Below, piece by piece: positions 34,789-43,534 of a stretch of 64,000 bases of DNA. Within the stretch, counting starts at the first letter, position 1. The number at the start of each line of letters is the position of its first letter. The stretch is from contig CAVWHO010000013.1 of the NCBI GenBank assembly GCA_963754875.1, positions 1 through 64,000 of the forward strand, given 5' to 3'. Origin of the DNA: Nitrospirota bacterium. GTDB taxonomy: Bacteria; Nitrospirota; UBA9217. The position numbers and the translations under genes are program-made. Below the pieces are notes generated by a model, which saw only the letters and a program-made list of their open reading frames with translations, made no database searches and was not told where the DNA came from.

Positions 34789-36042
34789 TCAGTGCTGACG
34801 TGCTTTCGAGTGAAATCGTCGATTTCTGCTGAAAGGAGAAGGGTTCTGCCGCTGAAGTGCGGAAGCACGCTGTTTTTCTTCCGCAGACCGCCTGATTTCC
34901 TTGATATACATCGTATCCTCCGCCCATTCCACGGGGATCTTCTGGCCGATGTATTTTTCGATGTCTTCGAGGGAAAAGACGTACTCCTCATCAGCGAGAC
35001 TGAGCGCCTTGCCGGTTGCCCCGGCGCGGCCGGTGCGGCCGATCCGGTGTACGTAGTCTTCAGCGTCCTGCGGTAAATCGTAATTGATGACATGCGTAAC
35101 AGCTTCCACGTGGATGCCCCGGCTGGCAACGTCGGTTGCCACGAGCACGGGCAGTTTCCCCTCTTTGAATTCCGCAAGGAGCCGGAGCCGTTTCTTCTGA
35201 ATGATGTCTCCGGTGATTGCGTCGGCTTTCCAGCCGTTGCGGTTCAGACGTTCGACGACCATATCGGCAGCGCGCCGGGTGTTGACGAAGATGAGCGTAC
35301 GGAGGGGCTGTTCTTTCTTGAGGATGCCGAGCAGGAGCGGGAGCTTCTCGTGTTTGCCGACATGATACAGGACCTGCTCGACCTGTTCAACCGTGATTTT
35401 CTCGGGCGTAATCGATATCTTTTCCGGAAGGTTCATGTGCTCGTAGGCGAGTTCCATGACCCGGTAGGAGAGCGTCGCGGAGAAGAGCATGGACTGGCGT
35501 TTGGTGTAGGGAGGCATTTTCTTGATGAGATACCGCAGGTCGTCGATGAACCCCATGTCGAACATGCGGTCCGCTTCATCAATGATCAGGTACCGGCTTT
35601 TCTTCAGGCTGTATACATGCTGCTTAAAATAGTCGATGAGTCTCCCCGGCGTGCCGATGAGTACGTCGACGCCCTTCTGCAGGATGTCCATCTGTTTCTG
35701 ATAATCGATGCCGCCGTACACGGCGAGGCAGCGAAAGCCCGTGAACTTGCCGAGCCGCTCGGCCTCATGAAATATCTGATCCGCAAGTTCGCGCGTCGGC
35801 GCTATGATGAGGGCCTGGGGAGAGTTCCCCAAATCGGTCGCCGGATTTCTTTCCATCCGTGTGAAGAGAGAAATAAGAAAGGCCGCGGTTTTGCCCGTCC
35901 CCGTCTGTGCCTGCGCGGCCACATCTTCACCCCGGACCGCCCGGGGGATCACAGCCTCTTGCACCGCTGTACATGCCGTGAAACCGGAGTGCTCGATACC
36001 TTGCATTATTTCAAAGGGCAGATCCAACTCACTAAAGTTCAT
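34789..36042 (-). CDS. rhlB: DEAD-box RNA helicase (RhlB-like)
   Basis: AQTGTGKT, PTRELA, DEAD, SAT, HRIGRTGRAG. Confidence 0.88.
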   Translation of the reverse strand: MNFSELDLPFEIMQGIEHSGFTACTAVQEAVIPRAVRGEDVAAQAQTGTGKTAAFLISLFTRMERNPATDLGNSPQALIIAPTRELADQIFHEAERLGKFTGFRCLAVYGGIDYQKQMDILQKGVDVLIGTPGRLIDYFKQHVYSLKKSRYLIIDEADRMFDMGFIDDLRYLIKKMPPYTKRQSMLFSATLSYRVMELAYEHMNLPEKISITPEKITVEQVEQVLYHVGKHEKLPLLLGILKKEQPLRTLIFVNTRRAADMVVERLNRNGWKADAITGDIIQKKRLRLLAEFKEGKLPVLVATDVASRGIHVEAVTHVINYDLPQDAEDYVHRIGRTGRAGATGKALSLADEEYVFSLEDIEKYIGQKIPVEWAEDTMYIKEIRRSAEEKQRASALQRQNPSPFSRNRRFHSKARQH

Positions 36043-36524
36043 ACATCTCCGTTTCTGAAGGAAGACAATTTGTCAACAAATTATTCACTGTAGTATACCA
36101 TAAGTGCCGGAGCGAACGAAAGTAAAATAATGAAAGGGACGTCGAAAGGTCATCACCGTCATTCGCCGGGTTTGACTATTTAAACTCATCTTTACCTCAA
36201 AATGATCGGCATCATACAGAGAGGATAAAATTAATCCTCAATGTGCGTGAATGATGCTTGCGATTTTCGGCGTGCGGGTGAACGGAGAATCACCGGCTGT
36301 TTATGCGGTCAATATCGTCATATCGCACCAGGAGGGGGGATGCGAGGCGTTATCTCGATTTATAATCAGCGCCGCAGACGCCAGGAACAGCAAGAGCTAT
36401 GCACCATAAAAAGTGGTTATTTAGAGTGTAAAACATTAATTTTTTGTACCTATTTTACAAGATGTGAATTCAAGTGTTGATAAATTGTCTAACGTTATGA
36501 AAGATAATTTTTTTTATTTTCTTG

Positions 36525-36559
36525 TTGACAAATAATACACTCTTGTTGTATATTTGTCC
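36525..36559 (+). promoter_or_regulatory. Sigma70 promoter overlapped by an inverted repeat (candidate autoregulatory operator)
   Basis: TTGACA...TATATT; GACAAATA-N16-TATTTGTC. Confidence 0.55.
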
Positions 36560-36576
36560 ACGAGGAGAAAACAAAC

Positions 36577-37143
36577 GTGCTGACAAAACTCTTCTCTTCC
36601 ACAAGAGCGGAGCTTTTAGGCCTGTTCTTTAATAATCCGGATGACCGCTTCTATTTGAGAGAGATAGCCCGCCACATCGGCAAAGATGCGGCAGGGATCA
36701 AACGGGAACTGGACAACCTGGTCAAGATGGGGCTTCTGGCAAGGGAGAAGCGGGGTGTTCAGAAATACTACTTTGCGAACAAGAACTCGCCCATCTTTTC
36801 TGAAATGAAGGGGTTGATCTTCAAAACCACCGGCGTCCAGGGCGCGATGAAAGCGTCGCTTTCCCGGCTAAAAGGCGTTCAGGTTGCATTAATTTACGGT
36901 TCCTATGCAAAGGGCGCTGAAAAAGAAGACAGCAATATAAATCTGATGGTAATCGGCCAGGCGAACATCACGGAGTTGAACGACACGGTGATGGGGCTGG
37001 AAGAAAAATTGAAGCGTGACATCGATTACCTGGTGTTCGACGAGCAGGAATACCGGAAGCGCAAGGAATCGAAAGATCCGTTCATCCGGGAGATATTAAA
37101 AGGCAAAAAGATTTTCCTGGCAGGCAGGGAAGATGACATATGA
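36577..37143 (+). CDS. wHTH plus minimal nucleotidyltransferase (MNT) protein, DxD motif replaced by NxN
   Basis: FYLREIAR...IKRELDNL; YGSYAKGAEKEDSNINL (canonical GSxxxG...SDIDL). Confidence 0.85.
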   Translation: MLTKLFSSTRAELLGLFFNNPDDRFYLREIARHIGKDAAGIKRELDNLVKMGLLAREKRGVQKYYFANKNSPIFSEMKGLIFKTTGVQGAMKASLSRLKGVQVALIYGSYAKGAEKEDSNINLMVIGQANITELNDTVMGLEEKLKRDIDYLVFDEQEYRKRKESKDPFIREILKGKKIFLAGREDDI

Positions 37144-37618
37144 ATCGCTAAAAGAAATGGGCATCGTTGAGGAACGGGCTGCTGAGATCACGGAGATTAT
37201 CGCTCTCGTGACCAGGGCGGAACGAGATCTGTCAACGAGCAAGATCCTGGAGGACAAGGATGAGGAGTGGGCATTTGCCGCAGCGTATTTAGCCATGGTC
37301 CGGTCGGCAAGAGCTCTCATCCTATCCGAGGGCCTTCGCCCCAAAGGGGTTCGCGGAAGAGACGCTCAGAAAACGGTAGTGACGGCTGCAGGAGTCATTC
37401 TCGGCGGCCACTATAAAAGCCTGATCAATAAGTTCGATCGCATGAGAAGAAAATATCAGAGTTTCATGGAAGAGGCCGGTCGTATGATCTCCCAGTATGA
37501 AGCTGGACAGGCCATTAAGGACGCAGCTGAATTCATCGAACTGGTAAACGGGAGAATCCGGGAAAAATACTCACAGATGTCACTGCTGAATGATGTTCCT
37601 CAGCTTGTTTCAAGATAA
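37133..37618 (+). CDS. HEPN-like domain protein with degenerate active site
   Basis: AERDL...AFAAAYLAMVRSARAL...GLRP; FDRMRRKYQSF lacks Rx4-6H/Y; 11-nt overlap with the MNT gene. Confidence 0.75.
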   Translation: MTYESLKEMGIVEERAAEITEIIALVTRAERDLSTSKILEDKDEEWAFAAAYLAMVRSARALILSEGLRPKGVRGRDAQKTVVTAAGVILGGHYKSLINKFDRMRRKYQSFMEEAGRMISQYEAGQAIKDAAEFIELVNGRIREKYSQMSLLNDVPQLVSR

Positions 37619-37666
37619 GGCCGCTTAAGGTCAAAACGCGGTATGCCGAAAGGGGGTGGAAAACTA

Positions 37667-37729
37667 ATGGCAGCCAAGAAAAAAGCGAAGAAGAAGGCAA
37701 CCAAGAAGAAAGCCACCAAAAAGAAGTAG
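37667..37729 (+). CDS. 20-aa Lys-rich micropeptide MAAKKKAKKKATKKKATKKK
   Basis: RBS AAAGGGGGTG, ATG...TAG, mixed AAG/AAA codons, downstream GC hairpin at about 37761-37787. Confidence 0.7.
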   Translation: MAAKKKAKKKATKKKATKKK

Positions 37730-37883
37730 TTTTTATTCCATAGTGTCCCTGCAGTGGGGCCCGCCGGGGGCATTCGCGCCCCCGGCGTATTTCAAGACCG
37801 GCTCACGTCGTACCATTTAGAGAGTGTTATTATTCATTGTTGTTCATCCGAATATTCCGCTGAGGAAAGGGGGTGAGGTATTC

Positions 37884-37943
37884 ATGGCGACAAAGAAAAA
37901 GGCCCCGGCAAAAAAGGCAAAAAAGACCACCAAAAAGAAATAA
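37884..37943 (+). CDS. 19-aa Lys-rich micropeptide MATKKKAPAKKAKKTTKKK
   Basis: Same RBS AAAGGGGGTG, ATG...TAA, downstream terminator-like ACCACGAAG...CTTCGTGGTTTT. Confidence 0.7.
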   Translation: MATKKKAPAKKAKKTTKKK

Positions 37944-38080
37944 CCAGTGTGCAACGATGACGTACCTCGATAGTGCCATCTGCAACTCTACCACGAAGCC
38001 GGTCTTCGTGGTTTTGTTTTTAGAAAACCTTTTCCATTTCAGCCGGCCCGGTCAGGATGTGGCCAACGAGACGAAGAATT

Positions 38081-38407
38081 ATGCGTAAACGGAATACTCT
38101 GAAATCTGATAGAAATTTCCGGAGTTTTTACCGCAGGAAACTTATCGTTGCCGCCGGAATCCTTTTCGCTCTGTATCTCATTGCAAACTTCATGTTTGGT
38201 GAAATGGGCGTGATCAAATACTATCGGATGAAGACGCAATATAATACCCTCACGAGAGACATCGCAACGCTCAAACAGGACAATGCAAAACTTGCGCGGG
38301 AGGTCCGCGCCTTGAAGACCGATCCCGACCATCTTGAGCAGATTGCCCGGGATAAACTCGGACTTGCGCGTCAAGGGGAGATAGTGTACTATTATGGCGA
38401 GCCCTGA
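38081..38407 (+). CDS. ftsB: Septum formation initiator FtsB/DivIC
   Basis: TM helix, FGEMG, coiled coil, LEQIARDKLGLARQGEIVY. Confidence 0.88.
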   Translation: MRKRNTLKSDRNFRSFYRRKLIVAAGILFALYLIANFMFGEMGVIKYYRMKTQYNTLTRDIATLKQDNAKLAREVRALKTDPDHLEQIARDKLGLARQGEIVYYYGEP

Positions 38408-40824: not shown

Positions 40825-41374
40825 ATCCTGAAATACCCAGCAGCTCTGCTGCTGGGATGAAAAGGATATCCTGACGAAGTCAGGATGAGAATCTGTTACA
40901 ATACGGGCCATGAGCCCATTGAGAAGAAGCAAACATAGCGTCTATGATCTGAAGTACCATTTTGTATGGATACCAAAATATCGAAGGAAGCTGTTCAGCG
41001 ATCGAATGACGACGAGACTGAAAGAGATATTTCGTGAGATCGCAGAGCGATATGAATTTGAAATAGATACGATGGAAGCAATGGATGATCATGTGCATTT
41101 GTTTTTGGTTGTGCCACCGAAGTATGCTCCAGCGAGGGTAGTACAGATAATCAAAAGCATATCGGCAAAGATGATGTTTCGAGAATTCCCCGAGATAAAG
41201 AAAAAACTTTGGGGAGGAGAACTCTGGAATGACGGCTACTTTGTCCGTTCGGTTGGCGACAAAGTAACGGCAGAAGTTATAAGAAAGTATATTCGGTATC
41301 AGCATGATGAGCAAGTTGGCTTTAGGTTCTAGCGCATTTAGGATGCCCCGCAGCTCTGCTGCGGGGTAATTCAC
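40825..41374 (+). mobile_element. IS200-type element (tnpA only, no tnpB); left boundary approximate
   Basis: Related subterminal hairpins CCCAGCAGCTCTGCTGCTGGG (40836-40856) and CCCCGCAGCTCTGCTGCGGGG (41346-41366) followed by TTCAC. Confidence 0.85.
40910..41332 (+). CDS. tnpA: IS200/IS605 Y1 HUH transposase
   Basis: YHFVWIPKYR, DHVHL, LWNDGYF, KYIRYQ. Confidence 0.95.
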   Translation: MSPLRRSKHSVYDLKYHFVWIPKYRRKLFSDRMTTRLKEIFREIAERYEFEIDTMEAMDDHVHLFLVVPPKYAPARVVQIIKSISAKMMFREFPEIKKKLWGGELWNDGYFVRSVGDKVTAEVIRKYIRYQHDEQVGFRF

Positions 41375-41394: not shown

Positions 41395-43116
41395 CTACCA
41401 GCTTTGCAAGCCGTGACATCCGGTAAGCCCGCCGGCGCTCGGGTTGCACGTCGTTCCCGTGAAGTTGACCGCGCTGTTGATTGTGGTCGAGGCCGTAGCT
41501 TCAGAGATCGGGGCGGTCAGCGAGGTGAAGTGCACCGCTGCAAGCATCGTCGTATCATGACAGACGGTACACGCGAGCCCTCTCATATCGCTATTATTGT
41601 GCTGGCCTGAGTAATAGCTGTTGTTCTCCGGAATGCCCGGGCCGGTACCCAGAACGTGGCATGCCGTACACTGAGTGTTGACGTTGATCGTGCCGGTCTG
41701 CCAGTCAGGCGTTGTCAGGCTGCCGTGGCAGCTCACATTGGAACAGGCCATCGTAGATGCGTTGTACGTTGCTGCTCCGGCTTTCGCATTGAACGTCGGG
41801 TCGAGGATCACGTCTACGACTCCGTTCTGGTGAAGCGTGGTGCCGGAGCCGGCCCCTAAATGGCAGGTTGAGCACGCTACCGTGTTGAGGCTCATATGAG
41901 GTGCATGGTTGCCGGCAACGTTCGGGAACACGGTGCCCGACGGCGGAATCCCGTGACAGGTCCCGCAGGTCGGTGTCGCGTGGCAGAGCGTGCTGTTGAA
42001 GCAGCCGGGAGCGGTCCCTGCTGCAGCCGGCGGCGACGGCGGTGCAATCGGCGAGTTCGCGCCGTTCGTATGGCAAAGCGCGCAGACCGAGGCATTGCCG
42101 GTGTCAGTGGTGGTGTGGGTATAGGAACCCGTTATCCATGAAGTTGGGTGCGGCCCGCTTCCCCCGTGACAGGTGAAGCAAGACGTCTGTGCGGCACCAC
42201 CTGAAAAATCAGAGCCGTGGCAGGTTTCGCACAGTGCGAATCCGCCTGTCGACGTGGGTGCCGATTTTGCGGCAACGCCATGCTGCGTCGGATCGGACCA
42301 TCCTGCCGGGTGCCCAACTTGTGCATGACAGAGGGTGCTGTTGAAGCAGCCCGGAGCGGTCCCTGCTGCAGCCGGCGGCGACGGCGGCGCAATCGGCGAA
42401 TTGGCGCCGTTCGTATGGCAAAGCGCGCAGACCGAGGCATTGCCGGTGTCAGTGGTGGTGTGGGTATAGGGACCCGTTATCCATGAAGTTGGGTGCGGCC
42501 CGCTCCCCCCGTGGCAGGTGAAGCAAGACGTTTGTGCGGCACCACCTGAGAAATCAGAGCCGTGGCAGGTTTGGCATAGCGCGAATCCGCCTGTCGATGT
42601 CGGTGCTGCTTTGGCAGAAACGCCATGCTGCGACGGATCGGACCATCCTGCCGGGTGCCCAACTTGTGCATGACAGAGGGTGCTGTTGAAGCAGCCCGGA
42701 GCGGTCCCTGCTGCAGCCGGCAGCGACGGCGGCGCAATCGGCGAATTGGCGCCGTTCGTATGACAAAGCGCGCAGACCGAGGCATTGCCGGTGTCAGTGG
42801 TGGTGTGGGTATAGGAACCTGTTATCCATGAAGTTGGGTGCGGTGCACTCCCACCATGGCAGGACTTGCATGCTACAGCCGAGATGCCACCGGAAAAATC
42901 ATCAGCGTGGCACTCCTGGCAAACTGCAAAGCCATTGGCTTGCGTTTTCGCCGCTGCACCGTGGACAGCCGGCGAGGACCAACCCGCTGTATGCTGACCG
43001 GTATCAGGATTAAATGACGATAACGCTTGTTTATTTGATGAACTACATCCAATGAAGAGTGCGACTGCGCAAAACAGACCCAATACCAGGACCACCCGTT
43101 CCATTTTCTTTCTCAT
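41395..43116 (-). CDS. Multiheme c-type cytochrome lipoprotein with three 115-aa repeats and a CxxxxCH/CxxCH C-terminal domain
   Basis: Lipobox FIGC; 13 CxxCH plus 3 CX5CH (CFNSTLCH), 1 CX4CH and 1 CX9CH; 345-bp DNA repeat period. Confidence 0.9.
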   Translation of the reverse strand: MRKKMERVVLVLGLFCAVALFIGCSSSNKQALSSFNPDTGQHTAGWSSPAVHGAAAKTQANGFAVCQECHADDFSGGISAVACKSCHGGSAPHPTSWITGSYTHTTTDTGNASVCALCHTNGANSPIAPPSLPAAAGTAPGCFNSTLCHAQVGHPAGWSDPSQHGVSAKAAPTSTGGFALCQTCHGSDFSGGAAQTSCFTCHGGSGPHPTSWITGPYTHTTTDTGNASVCALCHTNGANSPIAPPSPPAAAGTAPGCFNSTLCHAQVGHPAGWSDPTQHGVAAKSAPTSTGGFALCETCHGSDFSGGAAQTSCFTCHGGSGPHPTSWITGSYTHTTTDTGNASVCALCHTNGANSPIAPPSPPAAAGTAPGCFNSTLCHATPTCGTCHGIPPSGTVFPNVAGNHAPHMSLNTVACSTCHLGAGSGTTLHQNGVVDVILDPTFNAKAGAATYNASTMACSNVSCHGSLTTPDWQTGTINVNTQCTACHVLGTGPGIPENNSYYSGQHNNSDMRGLACTVCHDTTMLAAVHFTSLTAPISEATASTTINSAVNFTGTTCNPSAGGLTGCHGLQSW

Positions 43117-43534
43117 TGAGCACTTCCCCCGTGTTGTTAAAGTAGTACTAAAGTAAAGACAATATTTGTCCCGATTTCCCGTCATGCTAACGCGGCATAA
43201 TCGCGCCTGTCAACGTCTAATTATAATTTTATTGTGCATGCAGTATGCAATCATGTTTTTCAACATGCAGAGTAATAATTTGACGAGAGAGACGGTGCCC
43301 TCAGCTTTGCAGCCATAAAAAGACGGAGCTCGTTATGTTTCACAGCTGTCAGCTCACAACGTAATGTTGATTTTAACAAGCGTTCCTCAGCCGTCACTCC
43401 ATGCAGATAGCATGATTGCATTGCTTTTCCTGTCATGAAACGTATTCACACAGTCGTCGCACGATCTGCCTCTCAACGACTGAATGTCAGCACTCGTTGT
43501 ACGGCGACTGTCCTTTTAACTTGTCTCAGCCACT

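Follow-up and report, generated by a model that had tools for sequence, protein, structure and literature searches.

The closest described relatives of the locus analysed here are the type VII toxin-antitoxin (TA) modules known as HepT-MntA or PDC-M05, for example Shewanella SO_3166/SO_3165 (PDB 5yep and 7bxo). PDC-M05 is described in a passage of PMC12988326 as a pair of a nucleotidyltransferase (NTase) and a HEPN protein, as is characteristic of toxin-antitoxin modules, with an enrichment in archaea. A pair of this make-up, consisting of a winged helix-turn-helix (wHTH)-MNT gene and a HEPN gene, lies in the window, by which we mean the whole stretch of 64,000 nt from a Nitrospirota bacterium (contig CAVWHO010000013.1). 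The window pair shares with HepT-MntA and PDC-M05 the folds, the gene order and the overlap of the two genes, and with PDC-M05A also the fusion of an HTH to the NTase. However, it differs from them in that the catalytic motifs are gone, the genes are vertically inherited, nearly always single-copy and strongly selected, the HEPN gene is optional in the clade, and the operon ends in oligo-lysine micro-genes that none of three canonical paralogs has. On balance we favour, by a small measure, the view that the operon encodes a domesticated, autoregulating pseudo-MNT(-HEPN) repressor that doses polycationic peptides resembling the tails of histone H1.

All elements named in an earlier reading of this DNA from its letters alone (hereafter the sequence-only reading) were located in the window. 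Those of the overlapping pair, with the motif positions taken from alignment to the canonical paralogs, are as follows.

36577-37143, + strand: wHTH-MNT open reading frame (ORF), 188 aa, with a GTG start preceded by GAGGAG
36931-36945, + strand: SNINL, residues 119-123 of the MNT protein, replacing the metal-binding SD[IV]D[LV]
37133-37618, + strand: HEPN ORF, 161 aa, the start of which overlaps the MNT stop by 11 nt (ATGACATATGA)
37445-37465, + strand: RRKYQSF, residues 105-111 of the HEPN protein, where canonical paralogs carry R[NH]xxIY

The two genes are adjacent and co-oriented, and the 11-nt overlap is kept in the HEPN-bearing loci. The wHTH-MNT protein matched the Pfam family Polbeta PF18765 (34.8 bits against a cut-off of 26.9, E 1.9e-8) and PADLOC PDC-M05A (E 4.2e-55), and remained below the threshold of the NCBIfam MntA model (26.5 bits against 60). 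At its N-terminus wHTH families gave weaker matches, those of the Pfam HTH families all being below their cut-offs. In a Foldseek search with an AlphaFold model of the protein (ortholog alignment as input; predicted local distance difference test score, pLDDT, 86.2), the N-terminal third of 80-90 residues matched the ArsR/SmtB repressors SqrR 6o8k, SmtB 1r1t, HlyU and CzrA, and the C-terminal part matched the MntA antitoxin 7bxo_E (E 3.1e-4) and the MNT protein 8xeo_B. The sole match of the MNT sequence profile among solved structures was ArsR 6j05 (E 0.001, residues 6-68), and a search of the ESM Atlas returned wHTH-NTase clusters, as expected, and nothing else. The HEPN protein matched Pfam PF05168 (38.4 bits, E 1.6e-9) and PADLOC PDC-M05B (E 2.8e-16); no NCBIfam model matched it, and neither did any solved structure searched by sequence with the HEPN profile. 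Its AlphaFold model, made from an ortholog alignment in the same way, reached a pLDDT of 87.2. The top Foldseek matches of this model were the HEPN proteins 2hsb, 1wol, 3o10 and 1ufb, all of them weaker than E 0.001, and 2hsb gave a template modelling (TM) score of 0.79 normalised to the target.

The catalytic arrangement of the type VII TA nucleotidyltransferases, hG[GS]x9-13 D-x-D, is missing from the window MNT, in which G108-S109 is retained and the D-x-D position is occupied by N120-I-N122. The three canonical paralogs, which come from related genomes, retain GS...SD[IV]D and read SDVDV, SDIDL and SDIDL in the SNINL columns. The HEPN protein has the fold and lacks the Rx4-6H/Y RNase motif: where the canonical paralogs have K-R-[NH]-x-x-I-Y (or RNLGEY), the window protein has K-Y-Q-S-F-M-E, with both the Arg and the Tyr lost, and the two residues are gone in every peptide-linked HEPN aligned. 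With both motifs lost, neither AMPylation of HEPN by MNT nor RNase toxicity of HEPN is predicted. The sequence-only reading had spoken of a matched loss of catalysis, which holds in so far as both motifs are lost, but not as a recent matched event. Across 57 peptide-linked orthologs the D-x-D position was found as NIN, DVN, DIN, DID, EID, EIE, TVD, AVD, PVN, TVN, SLN and PVR, and the GS motif has become GP in the HEPN-less clade. The NIN state was present at 51 of 80 loci from a contig search for relatives, these 80 being the best of 361 and drawn from the same species collection as the 70-locus set described below, with which they overlap. Because so many states occur across the peptide-linked clade, catalysis was abandoned early, not recently, and the D-x-D positions are now drifting.

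The patchy, multi-copy, horizontally spread pattern typical of TA and defence modules was not observed for the window pair. With the window MNT as query, 32 of 41 related genomes gave a match (E <= 0.001), including 23 of the 24 from the window's family, and a match at E <= 1e-25 was found in 169 of 401 sampled genomes of the phylum. The matches are nearly always single per genome and follow clades: they were obtained in 57/63 genomes of the window's family (f1), 34/35 of f11, 13/14 of f24, 13/13 of f26, 7/7 of f4 and 5/5 of f13, and at the same threshold in none of f9 (0/76), f17 (0/40), f10 (0/28), f16 (0/14) and f3 (0/12), these family-level counts taking in related genomes that are not independent. 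Completeness is 63-87% in the six genomes of the window's family lacking an MNT match; the micro-gene pattern described below is nevertheless found in three of these, at the start of a contig in two of the three. The carriers are Nitrospirota, many of them labelled Thermodesulfovibrionia or Thermodesulfovibrionales, and the window's family includes the metagenome-assembled genome UBA9217. The full module (MNT, HEPN and peptides) was also seen at three loci (L125, L131 and L077) of assemblies labelled otherwise, two as Methylomirabilota and one as Betaproteobacteria, which reflects either mis-binning or a wider spread.

Synteny does not vary within the window's family, the order being acyl-CoA synthetase, DEAD-box helicase, MNT, HEPN, a gap, ftsB and GH57. 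Outside it what follows the operon is a convergent lpxC-like gene, so the placement of the module beside ftsB in the sequence-only reading is true of this family and not elsewhere. The ratio of nonsynonymous to synonymous substitution rates (dN/dS), calculated pairwise by the Nei-Gojobori method from up to 22 family loci, was 0.040 for MNT and 0.068 for HEPN, compared with 0.062 for the DEAD-box helicase, 0.096 for GH57, 0.127 for the acyl-CoA synthetase and 0.172 for FtsB. These values mean that MNT and HEPN are under selection equal to or stronger than that on their housekeeping neighbours, and the ORFs, intact despite the loss of catalysis as the sequence-only reading had noted, are thus under strong purifying selection. 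Judged by its distribution, synteny and substitution pattern, the module is a vertically inherited core operon, neither mobile nor decaying. The parent MNT-HEPN kind is known, and the window operon descends from it but has neither its catalytic motifs nor its distribution.

A still-working TA or anti-phage system of the PDC-M05 type, which would act through non-canonical catalytic residues, would fit the strong PADLOC matches to PDC-M05A and PDC-M05B, and one PDC-M05 representative is stated, in a portion of bioRxiv 10.1101/2024.09.26.614923, to be protective in E. coli against at least one phage. We nevertheless consider such a system very unlikely, since both motifs are gone and their substitutes are not conserved among orthologs, the MNT gene, clade-wide and syntenic, seldom has a second copy and shows dN/dS at housekeeping level, and HEPN, the toxin in that model, is missing from most of the clade. 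Rather, the pair looks like a domesticated descendant of a TA pair of the PDC-M05 / type VII HepT-MntA-like kind, in which the enzymes would be dead and a DNA-binding regulator would remain.

The HEPN gene is absent from the orthologs at 41-49% identity, where the peptide gene begins 33-130 nt past the MNT stop. When 60 MNT proteins were placed in a tree with the three canonical paralogs as root, an outgroup that carries a long-branch warning, the 57 peptide-linked proteins grouped together with a Shimodaira-Hasegawa-like approximate likelihood-ratio test (SH-aLRT) value of 88, and the 37 HEPN-less proteins formed one clade (SH-aLRT 98) nested among the HEPN-bearing lineages. Since the HEPN-less proteins form a single clade, one loss of HEPN suffices; and since this large sister clade lost HEPN yet retains the peptide gene, HEPN is dispensable. 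As far as the compared loci tell, the conserved core of the module is the wHTH-pseudo-MNT together with the peptide, and HEPN is optional.

Right behind the pair, as the sequence-only reading had pointed out, lie two genes for Lys/Ala/Thr peptides of 19-20 aa.

37650-37659, + strand: Shine-Dalgarno (SD) site of micro-gene 1, AAGGGGGTGG; the whole unit spans 37650-37729
37667-37729, + strand: ORF of micro-gene 1 (pep1), encoding the peptide MAAKKKAKKKATKKKATKKK
37867-37879, + strand: Shine-Dalgarno site of micro-gene 2, AAAGGGGGTGAGG; the whole unit spans 37867-37943
37884-37943, + strand: ORF of micro-gene 2 (pep2), encoding the peptide MATKKKAPAKKAKKTTKKK

Lys accounts for 12 of 20 residues in one peptide and 10 of 19 in the other, and each micro-ORF is preceded by AAAGGGGGTG, a near-perfect Shine-Dalgarno sequence. 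A scan of both strands of the own genome (4.3 Mb) for ORFs with a length of 12 aa or more and a Lys content of 45% or more gave seven entries, among which only the two micro-ORFs of the window are free-standing and bear a ribosome site. Between HEPN and ftsB, every one of the 22 family loci has two Lys/Ala/Thr/Pro ORFs of 17-30 aa (three at a few loci), each behind AAAGGGGGTG(A). Variation in them is concentrated at third codon positions: in micro-gene 1, of 20 codon columns, 5 vary at position 1, 5 at position 2 and 18 at position 3, and in micro-gene 2, of 18 columns, 5, 6 and 18 vary, respectively. The 22 loci carry 21 distinct DNA sequences of micro-gene 1 that encode 8 peptides and 19 of micro-gene 2 that encode 11, and indels are of whole codons. 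From this codon-level pattern we conclude that the micro-ORFs are very probably translated. That they are chance ORFs in A-rich DNA was ruled out by the genome scan, by the codon-level conservation and by the zero background count given below.

Linkage of the peptides to the pair was scored in a set of 70 loci, comprising the 22 family loci, 45 other orthologous loci and the 3 canonical paralog loci, the latter 48 fetched in addition from many families. We counted ORFs of at least 10 aa with at least 28% Lys and at least 88% K/R/A/T/P/G/S/V/M that bear an SD-like site and lie no more than 800 nt downstream. The results showed that such an ORF is present at 66 of the 67 orthologous loci (22/22 in the family and 44/45 among the others) and at 0/3 canonical paralog loci, and that 573,832 strand-nt of the same loci outside the module contain none. 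At the single miss, L052, a long Lys/Thr/Ala frame is interrupted by masked N. In the contig-search set, 76 of the 80 loci have at least 300 nt of downstream sequence and were eligible, and all 76 carry a Lys-rich ORF. There are one to three copies of the micro-gene per locus, and the peptides are 13-116 aa long with a median of 19, the long forms being repeat expansions such as (KKKTTA)n. At six loci (L043, L044, L052, L053, L057 and L069) the peptide gene is expanded to 54-116 aa, or beyond in the masked locus, by tandem repeats such as KKKTTA and KKTVAKKAT. The peptide sequence itself is conserved, for example APAKKAKK.

Similar micro-genes also occur on their own. A strict DNA pattern for them (SD, spacer, ATG-Ala/Pro-x-Lys-Lys) matched 141 of the 401 genomes, and the reversed control pattern matched none. 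Matches were found in families that have no MNT gene, namely in 12/76 genomes of f9 and 2/2 of f29; nine such matches were inspected, of which five were real micro-ORFs of 11-21 aa and four were unrelated gene starts. The pattern is also blind to SD variants, giving 0/4 in g7 and 0/6 in g11 although the loci there hold peptides. Because it misses SD variants and catches unrelated gene starts, its family tallies are rough. At three f9 loci (L151, L152 and L159) the micro-genes are monocistronic, encode Lys/Ala peptides of 14-21 aa, for example MATKKAAAKKPVKKAAAKKKK, and are each equipped with a promoter-like TTTACT-N17-TATACC of their own, a strong SD and a hairpin terminator. At two f29 loci (L156 and L157) Lys micro-ORFs of 11-12 aa stand behind a gene for a coiled-coil HARE-HTH protein (PF05066, E ~1e-9) and adjoin the convergent lpxC-like gene, which is the position of the pseudo-MNT module in the HEPN-less clade; a swap of winged-helix partners may have taken place here.

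As similar micro-genes stand alone in families without MNT, the peptide is independent of the MNT-HEPN pair. The linkage noted in the sequence-only reading is seen wherever an MNT ortholog occurs, but the peptide does not require the pair, HEPN being optional and the peptides also standing alone. Since the orthologs always come with a peptide gene and the converse is untrue, the peptide would be the effector, and the wHTH protein a dedicated regulator added to it. None of the three findings that the sequence-only reading had named as speaking against itself (D-x-D and RxxxxH/Y kept in close orthologs, a sporadic locus under relaxed selection, peptides unlinked from the pair) was obtained.

Some bacteria have tiny Arg/Lys-rich ribosomal proteins. 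The micro-proteins could likewise be basic peptides associated with the ribosome or with translation, with the wHTH protein as a mere neighbour or a general regulator; the very strong SD sites and the presence across the phylum, including monocistronic copies in MNT-less families, agree with this. However, copy number (1-3) and length (13-116 aa) vary freely, unlike what a fixed binding site on the ribosome would allow, and the linkage to the wHTH gene persists through changes of genomic context, which makes this account distinctly unlikely.

The Lys-rich ORFs resemble the attenuators of the trpL/hisL type in being tiny, rich in one amino acid and followed by a hairpin. Two hairpins lie in this part of the operon.

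37762-37787, + strand: GC-rich hairpin with a 10-bp stem and a weak U tract, UAUUU (folding free energy, dG, -33.3 kcal/mol; z -3.3)
37990-38012, + strand: intrinsic terminator at the operon end, with a 9-bp stem followed by TTTTGTTTTT

The hairpin behind micro-gene 1 is predicted to be a partial terminator or a 3' stabiliser; its stem is invariant in four aligned references and hence uninformative on covariation. The operon terminator and the CATCTGCAAC preceding it are conserved in 13 genus-level loci. Folding of the spacer between HEPN and micro-gene 1 gave nothing beyond chance (z -0.12), and an Rfam scan of 35900-38200 gave no match at E up to 1. If the ORFs were leader peptides of an attenuator that senses lysine or tRNA-Lys and controls a downstream gene such as ftsB, the hairpin and weak U tract behind micro-gene 1 would be as expected. 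But the folding showed simple hairpins only, with no alternative terminator/antiterminator pairings. Unlike in trpL/hisL attenuators, there is mostly no downstream gene to control: the peptide ORF is the last cistron of the operon, which a strong terminator closes, and at 37 of 45 loci outside the family the long ORF that comes next lies on the opposite strand (on the same strand at 7, and none at 1). Moreover, the ORF grows to 54-116 aa in some lineages, and it is the amino-acid sequence, such as APAKKAKK, that is conserved and not Lys codons alone. We reject the leader-peptide attenuator because the next long ORF is convergent at these 37 loci, and we regard it as hardly credible.

Upstream of the MNT gene the following elements were found.

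36064-36077, - strand: 14-nt box GTTGACAAATTGTC, palindromic in its core (GACAA-N-TTGTC) and situated in the helicase gene's 5' leader, just after a conserved -10 element, TGGTATACT
36476-36489, + strand: 14-nt box, second copy (GTTGATAAATTGTC), some 35 nt upstream of the operon -35
36525-36554, + strand: sigma-70-like operon promoter, TTGACA-18-TATATT, with 11 of 12 consensus positions
36527-36558, no strand assigned: inverted repeat GACAAATA-N16-TATTTGTC, exact in the window, a putative operator over the -35 and -10

The inverted repeat of the sequence-only reading thus sits on the promoter. It is conserved across the family, with an extra A in the left arm paired with an extra T in the right arm in several genera, and it was the sole copy without mismatch in a genome scan tolerating up to two mismatches. 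The sequence GTTGACAW was found within 160 nt upstream of the MNT start at 21/21 family loci and 38/44 other orthologous loci, compared with 0/3 paralogs and a background of 0.007 per 190 nt. The 4.3 Mb genome has just two occurrences of GTTGAYAWWWTGTC, and the intergenic region between helicase and MNT contains both; among 21 family loci the core of the helicase-leader box is conserved, and the block TGTTGATAAATTGTCTAA, which holds the second box copy, is nearly invariant. As the same 14-nt box is present at both, the helicase gene and the MNT operon may be co-regulated in the window's family. A conserved promoter element, TTATGGTATACT, was also noted for the divergent helicase gene in this intergenic region (36043-36576).

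A palindromic site that overlaps the promoter is the usual arrangement for repressors of the ArsR/SmtB type. The pseudo-MNT N-terminus shares the wHTH fold of these repressors (SqrR 6o8k, SmtB 1r1t, ArsR 6j05), and the conserved palindrome on the operon's own promoter, a putative operator, is a further likeness; the difference is that the window wHTH is fused to a degenerate nucleotidyltransferase fold and not to the dimerisation helices of that family. The residues invariant among 37 orthologs (L5, S8, R10, F25, Y26, R28, E29, A31, G40, E44, L48 and Y64) lie mainly in the wHTH. On these grounds the pseudo-MNT is likely to be a DNA-binding autoregulator.

The RNA evidence comes from a metatranscriptome study of relatives (one study, four runs), in which contigs of 314-384 nt bridge micro-gene 1, a replaced spacer and micro-gene 2, and other contigs cover MNT and HEPN. 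Five RNA contigs from the four runs begin at 37592-37597, about 20 nt before the HEPN stop, and one of them is directly preceded by adapter sequence; these starts may mark the 5' end of a processed or separate micro-gene transcript. At the 3' end of HEPN the third-position entropy is 0.81-0.90 against a mean of 1.15, so synonymous variation is modestly lowered, which hints weakly at an internal promoter.

The pair might alternatively regulate at the RNA level, a non-cutting pseudo-HEPN dimer that retains the RNA-binding cleft, with the Arg-rich helix NKFDRMRRKY, binding, together with the pseudo-MNT, the micro-gene mRNA or the helicase leader and so controlling translation or stability. This helix is the most conserved HEPN segment (amino-acid entropy 0.03, codons 101-110) and overlaps the former active site, HEPN domains without catalytic residues have been proposed as nucleic-acid binders (in a section of PMC3710099), one of the 14-nt boxes lies in the transcribed helicase leader, and the five contig starts give a weak hint of a processed or separate transcript. 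Against it, the larger subclade without HEPN keeps both the promoter box and the peptide linkage, and the most conserved part of MNT is a wHTH of the DNA type. In addition, the box core GACAA-N-TTGTC would leave a loop of 1 nt, too small for an RNA hairpin, and a DNA palindrome fits. We therefore hold control at the RNA level to be unlikely, and return to repression at the promoter.

In that account, the ArsR-like wHTH of the pseudo-MNT, dimerised via the degenerate nucleotidyltransferase fold, would bind the palindrome over the operon -35/-10, and also both GTTGAYAWWWTGTC boxes between the helicase and MNT genes. It would thereby repress its own operon and, in the window's family, probably the divergent DEAD-box helicase gene too. 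The pseudo-HEPN would be made by translational coupling and be retained as a partner subunit, a co-repressor or an RNA-binding accessory. The end products of the operon would be one to three oligo-lysine micro-proteins, presumably in large excess over the regulator because of their near-perfect SD sites as against the regulator's GTG start, and they would act in bulk on DNA, RNA or polyphosphate, as polycations akin to the tails of histone H1.

The peptides have the low-complexity Lys/Ala(/Thr/Pro) composition and the very high positive charge that mark H1-like proteins. They share composition and repeat style (KKAA, KKTA, PAKK) with Chlamydia Hc2, Pseudomonas AlgP and PhaF, and Burkholderia NF038053, and their lineage-specific repeat expansion resembles the variation in repeat number of Hc2 (reported in a part of PMC2848022). 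According to excerpts of PMC9239181 and PMC12818456, AlgP acts on polyphosphate granules and PhaF on RNA. In contrast to these proteins, the commonest form here is a free peptide of 13-30 aa without a folded domain. We find it somewhat likely that the peptides bind polyanions; that their target is specifically the nucleoid is possible rather than probable. Outside the window, at about 186930-187280 (- strand) of contig C16, the own genome encodes a second H1-like polycation of about 116 aa, which has an N-terminal zinc-ribbon-like CxxC...CC and a C-terminal tail of about 65 aa of KKKA/KKKT repeats.

Several observations weigh against a repressor that doses H1-tail-like peptides. The 20-aa peptide of the window matched none of the H1-like models (PF07382, NF038052 and NF038053), and a 67-aa relative reached 18.1 bits against PF07382 (Hc2; cut-off 40) and 17 bits against NF038053 (cut-off 80); as the matches to H1-like families are sub-threshold and come from long repeat forms only, the peptide target is argued from composition alone. 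Micro-genes exist without the regulator, which is thus unnecessary for peptide function. The conserved box contains TTGACA and could be merely a strong promoter, and the stems of hairpin and operator show no covariation except the one matched single-base indel. The RNA data are assembled contigs of relatives from one study, which leave parts of the stretch uncovered, and give presence and the bridge between the two micro-genes, not levels, strand or ends. Finally, a role of the pair as an acidic chaperone or charge-sequestering antidote for the peptides was rejected as unsupported by the isoelectric points, the pseudo-MNT protein being basic (9.4) and the HEPN protein near neutral (7.9).

Full-text searches of the literature, at the level of main texts, gave no description of an operon of a dead MNT(-HEPN) or wHTH-NTase with oligo-lysine micro-genes. 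Common gene callers have a minimum of roughly 30 codons. The micro-gene product is missing from annotations because its ORFs are shorter than this minimum, and a clade-wide and probably abundant product is thus invisible to annotation. The operon is also a natural case of domestication, that of a TA or defence module with both enzymes dead yet strongly selected, and because of the strong PADLOC matches, censuses of PDC-M05 may enter this core operon as immunity for each genome that belongs to the clade. A polycation action of the peptides on DNA, RNA or polyphosphate, if real, would make them a minimal nucleic-acid-condensing factor of relevance to nucleoid biology and to the physiology of thermophiles and anaerobes. 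In its widest form, which we put forward tentatively and with considerable doubt, the proposal is that Nitrospirota encode dosable polycations in the form of free oligo-lysine micro-proteins, a class absent from annotation whose members measure 13-30 aa but can expand beyond 100 aa; no smaller 'histone tails' associated with the nucleoid, RNA or polyphosphate would be known. In organisms of the Thermodesulfovibrionia type, their dosage would have passed to a TA pair without enzyme activities, which would now be an essential-like housekeeping regulator of chromatin or RNA and, in the window's family, would be wired to the DEAD-box helicase via the shared boxes.

The genes flanking the operon and the closest mobile-element gene are as follows.

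34789-36042, - strand: DEAD-box helicase gene, divergent from the operon
38057-38407, + strand: FtsB/DivIC gene, 3' of the operon
40910-41332, + strand: IS200-like Y1 transposase ORF (PF01797, E 1.2e-45)

The transposase lies 3.3 kb downstream of the module, past ftsB and the GH57 gene, and the sequence-only reading was thus right that no mobile element is adjacent. Beyond it, at 41395-43185 on the - strand, a gene encodes a 596-aa protein of repeated multihaem cytochrome c modules (c3, c7 and MtrC-like matches) with three near-identical internal repeats.

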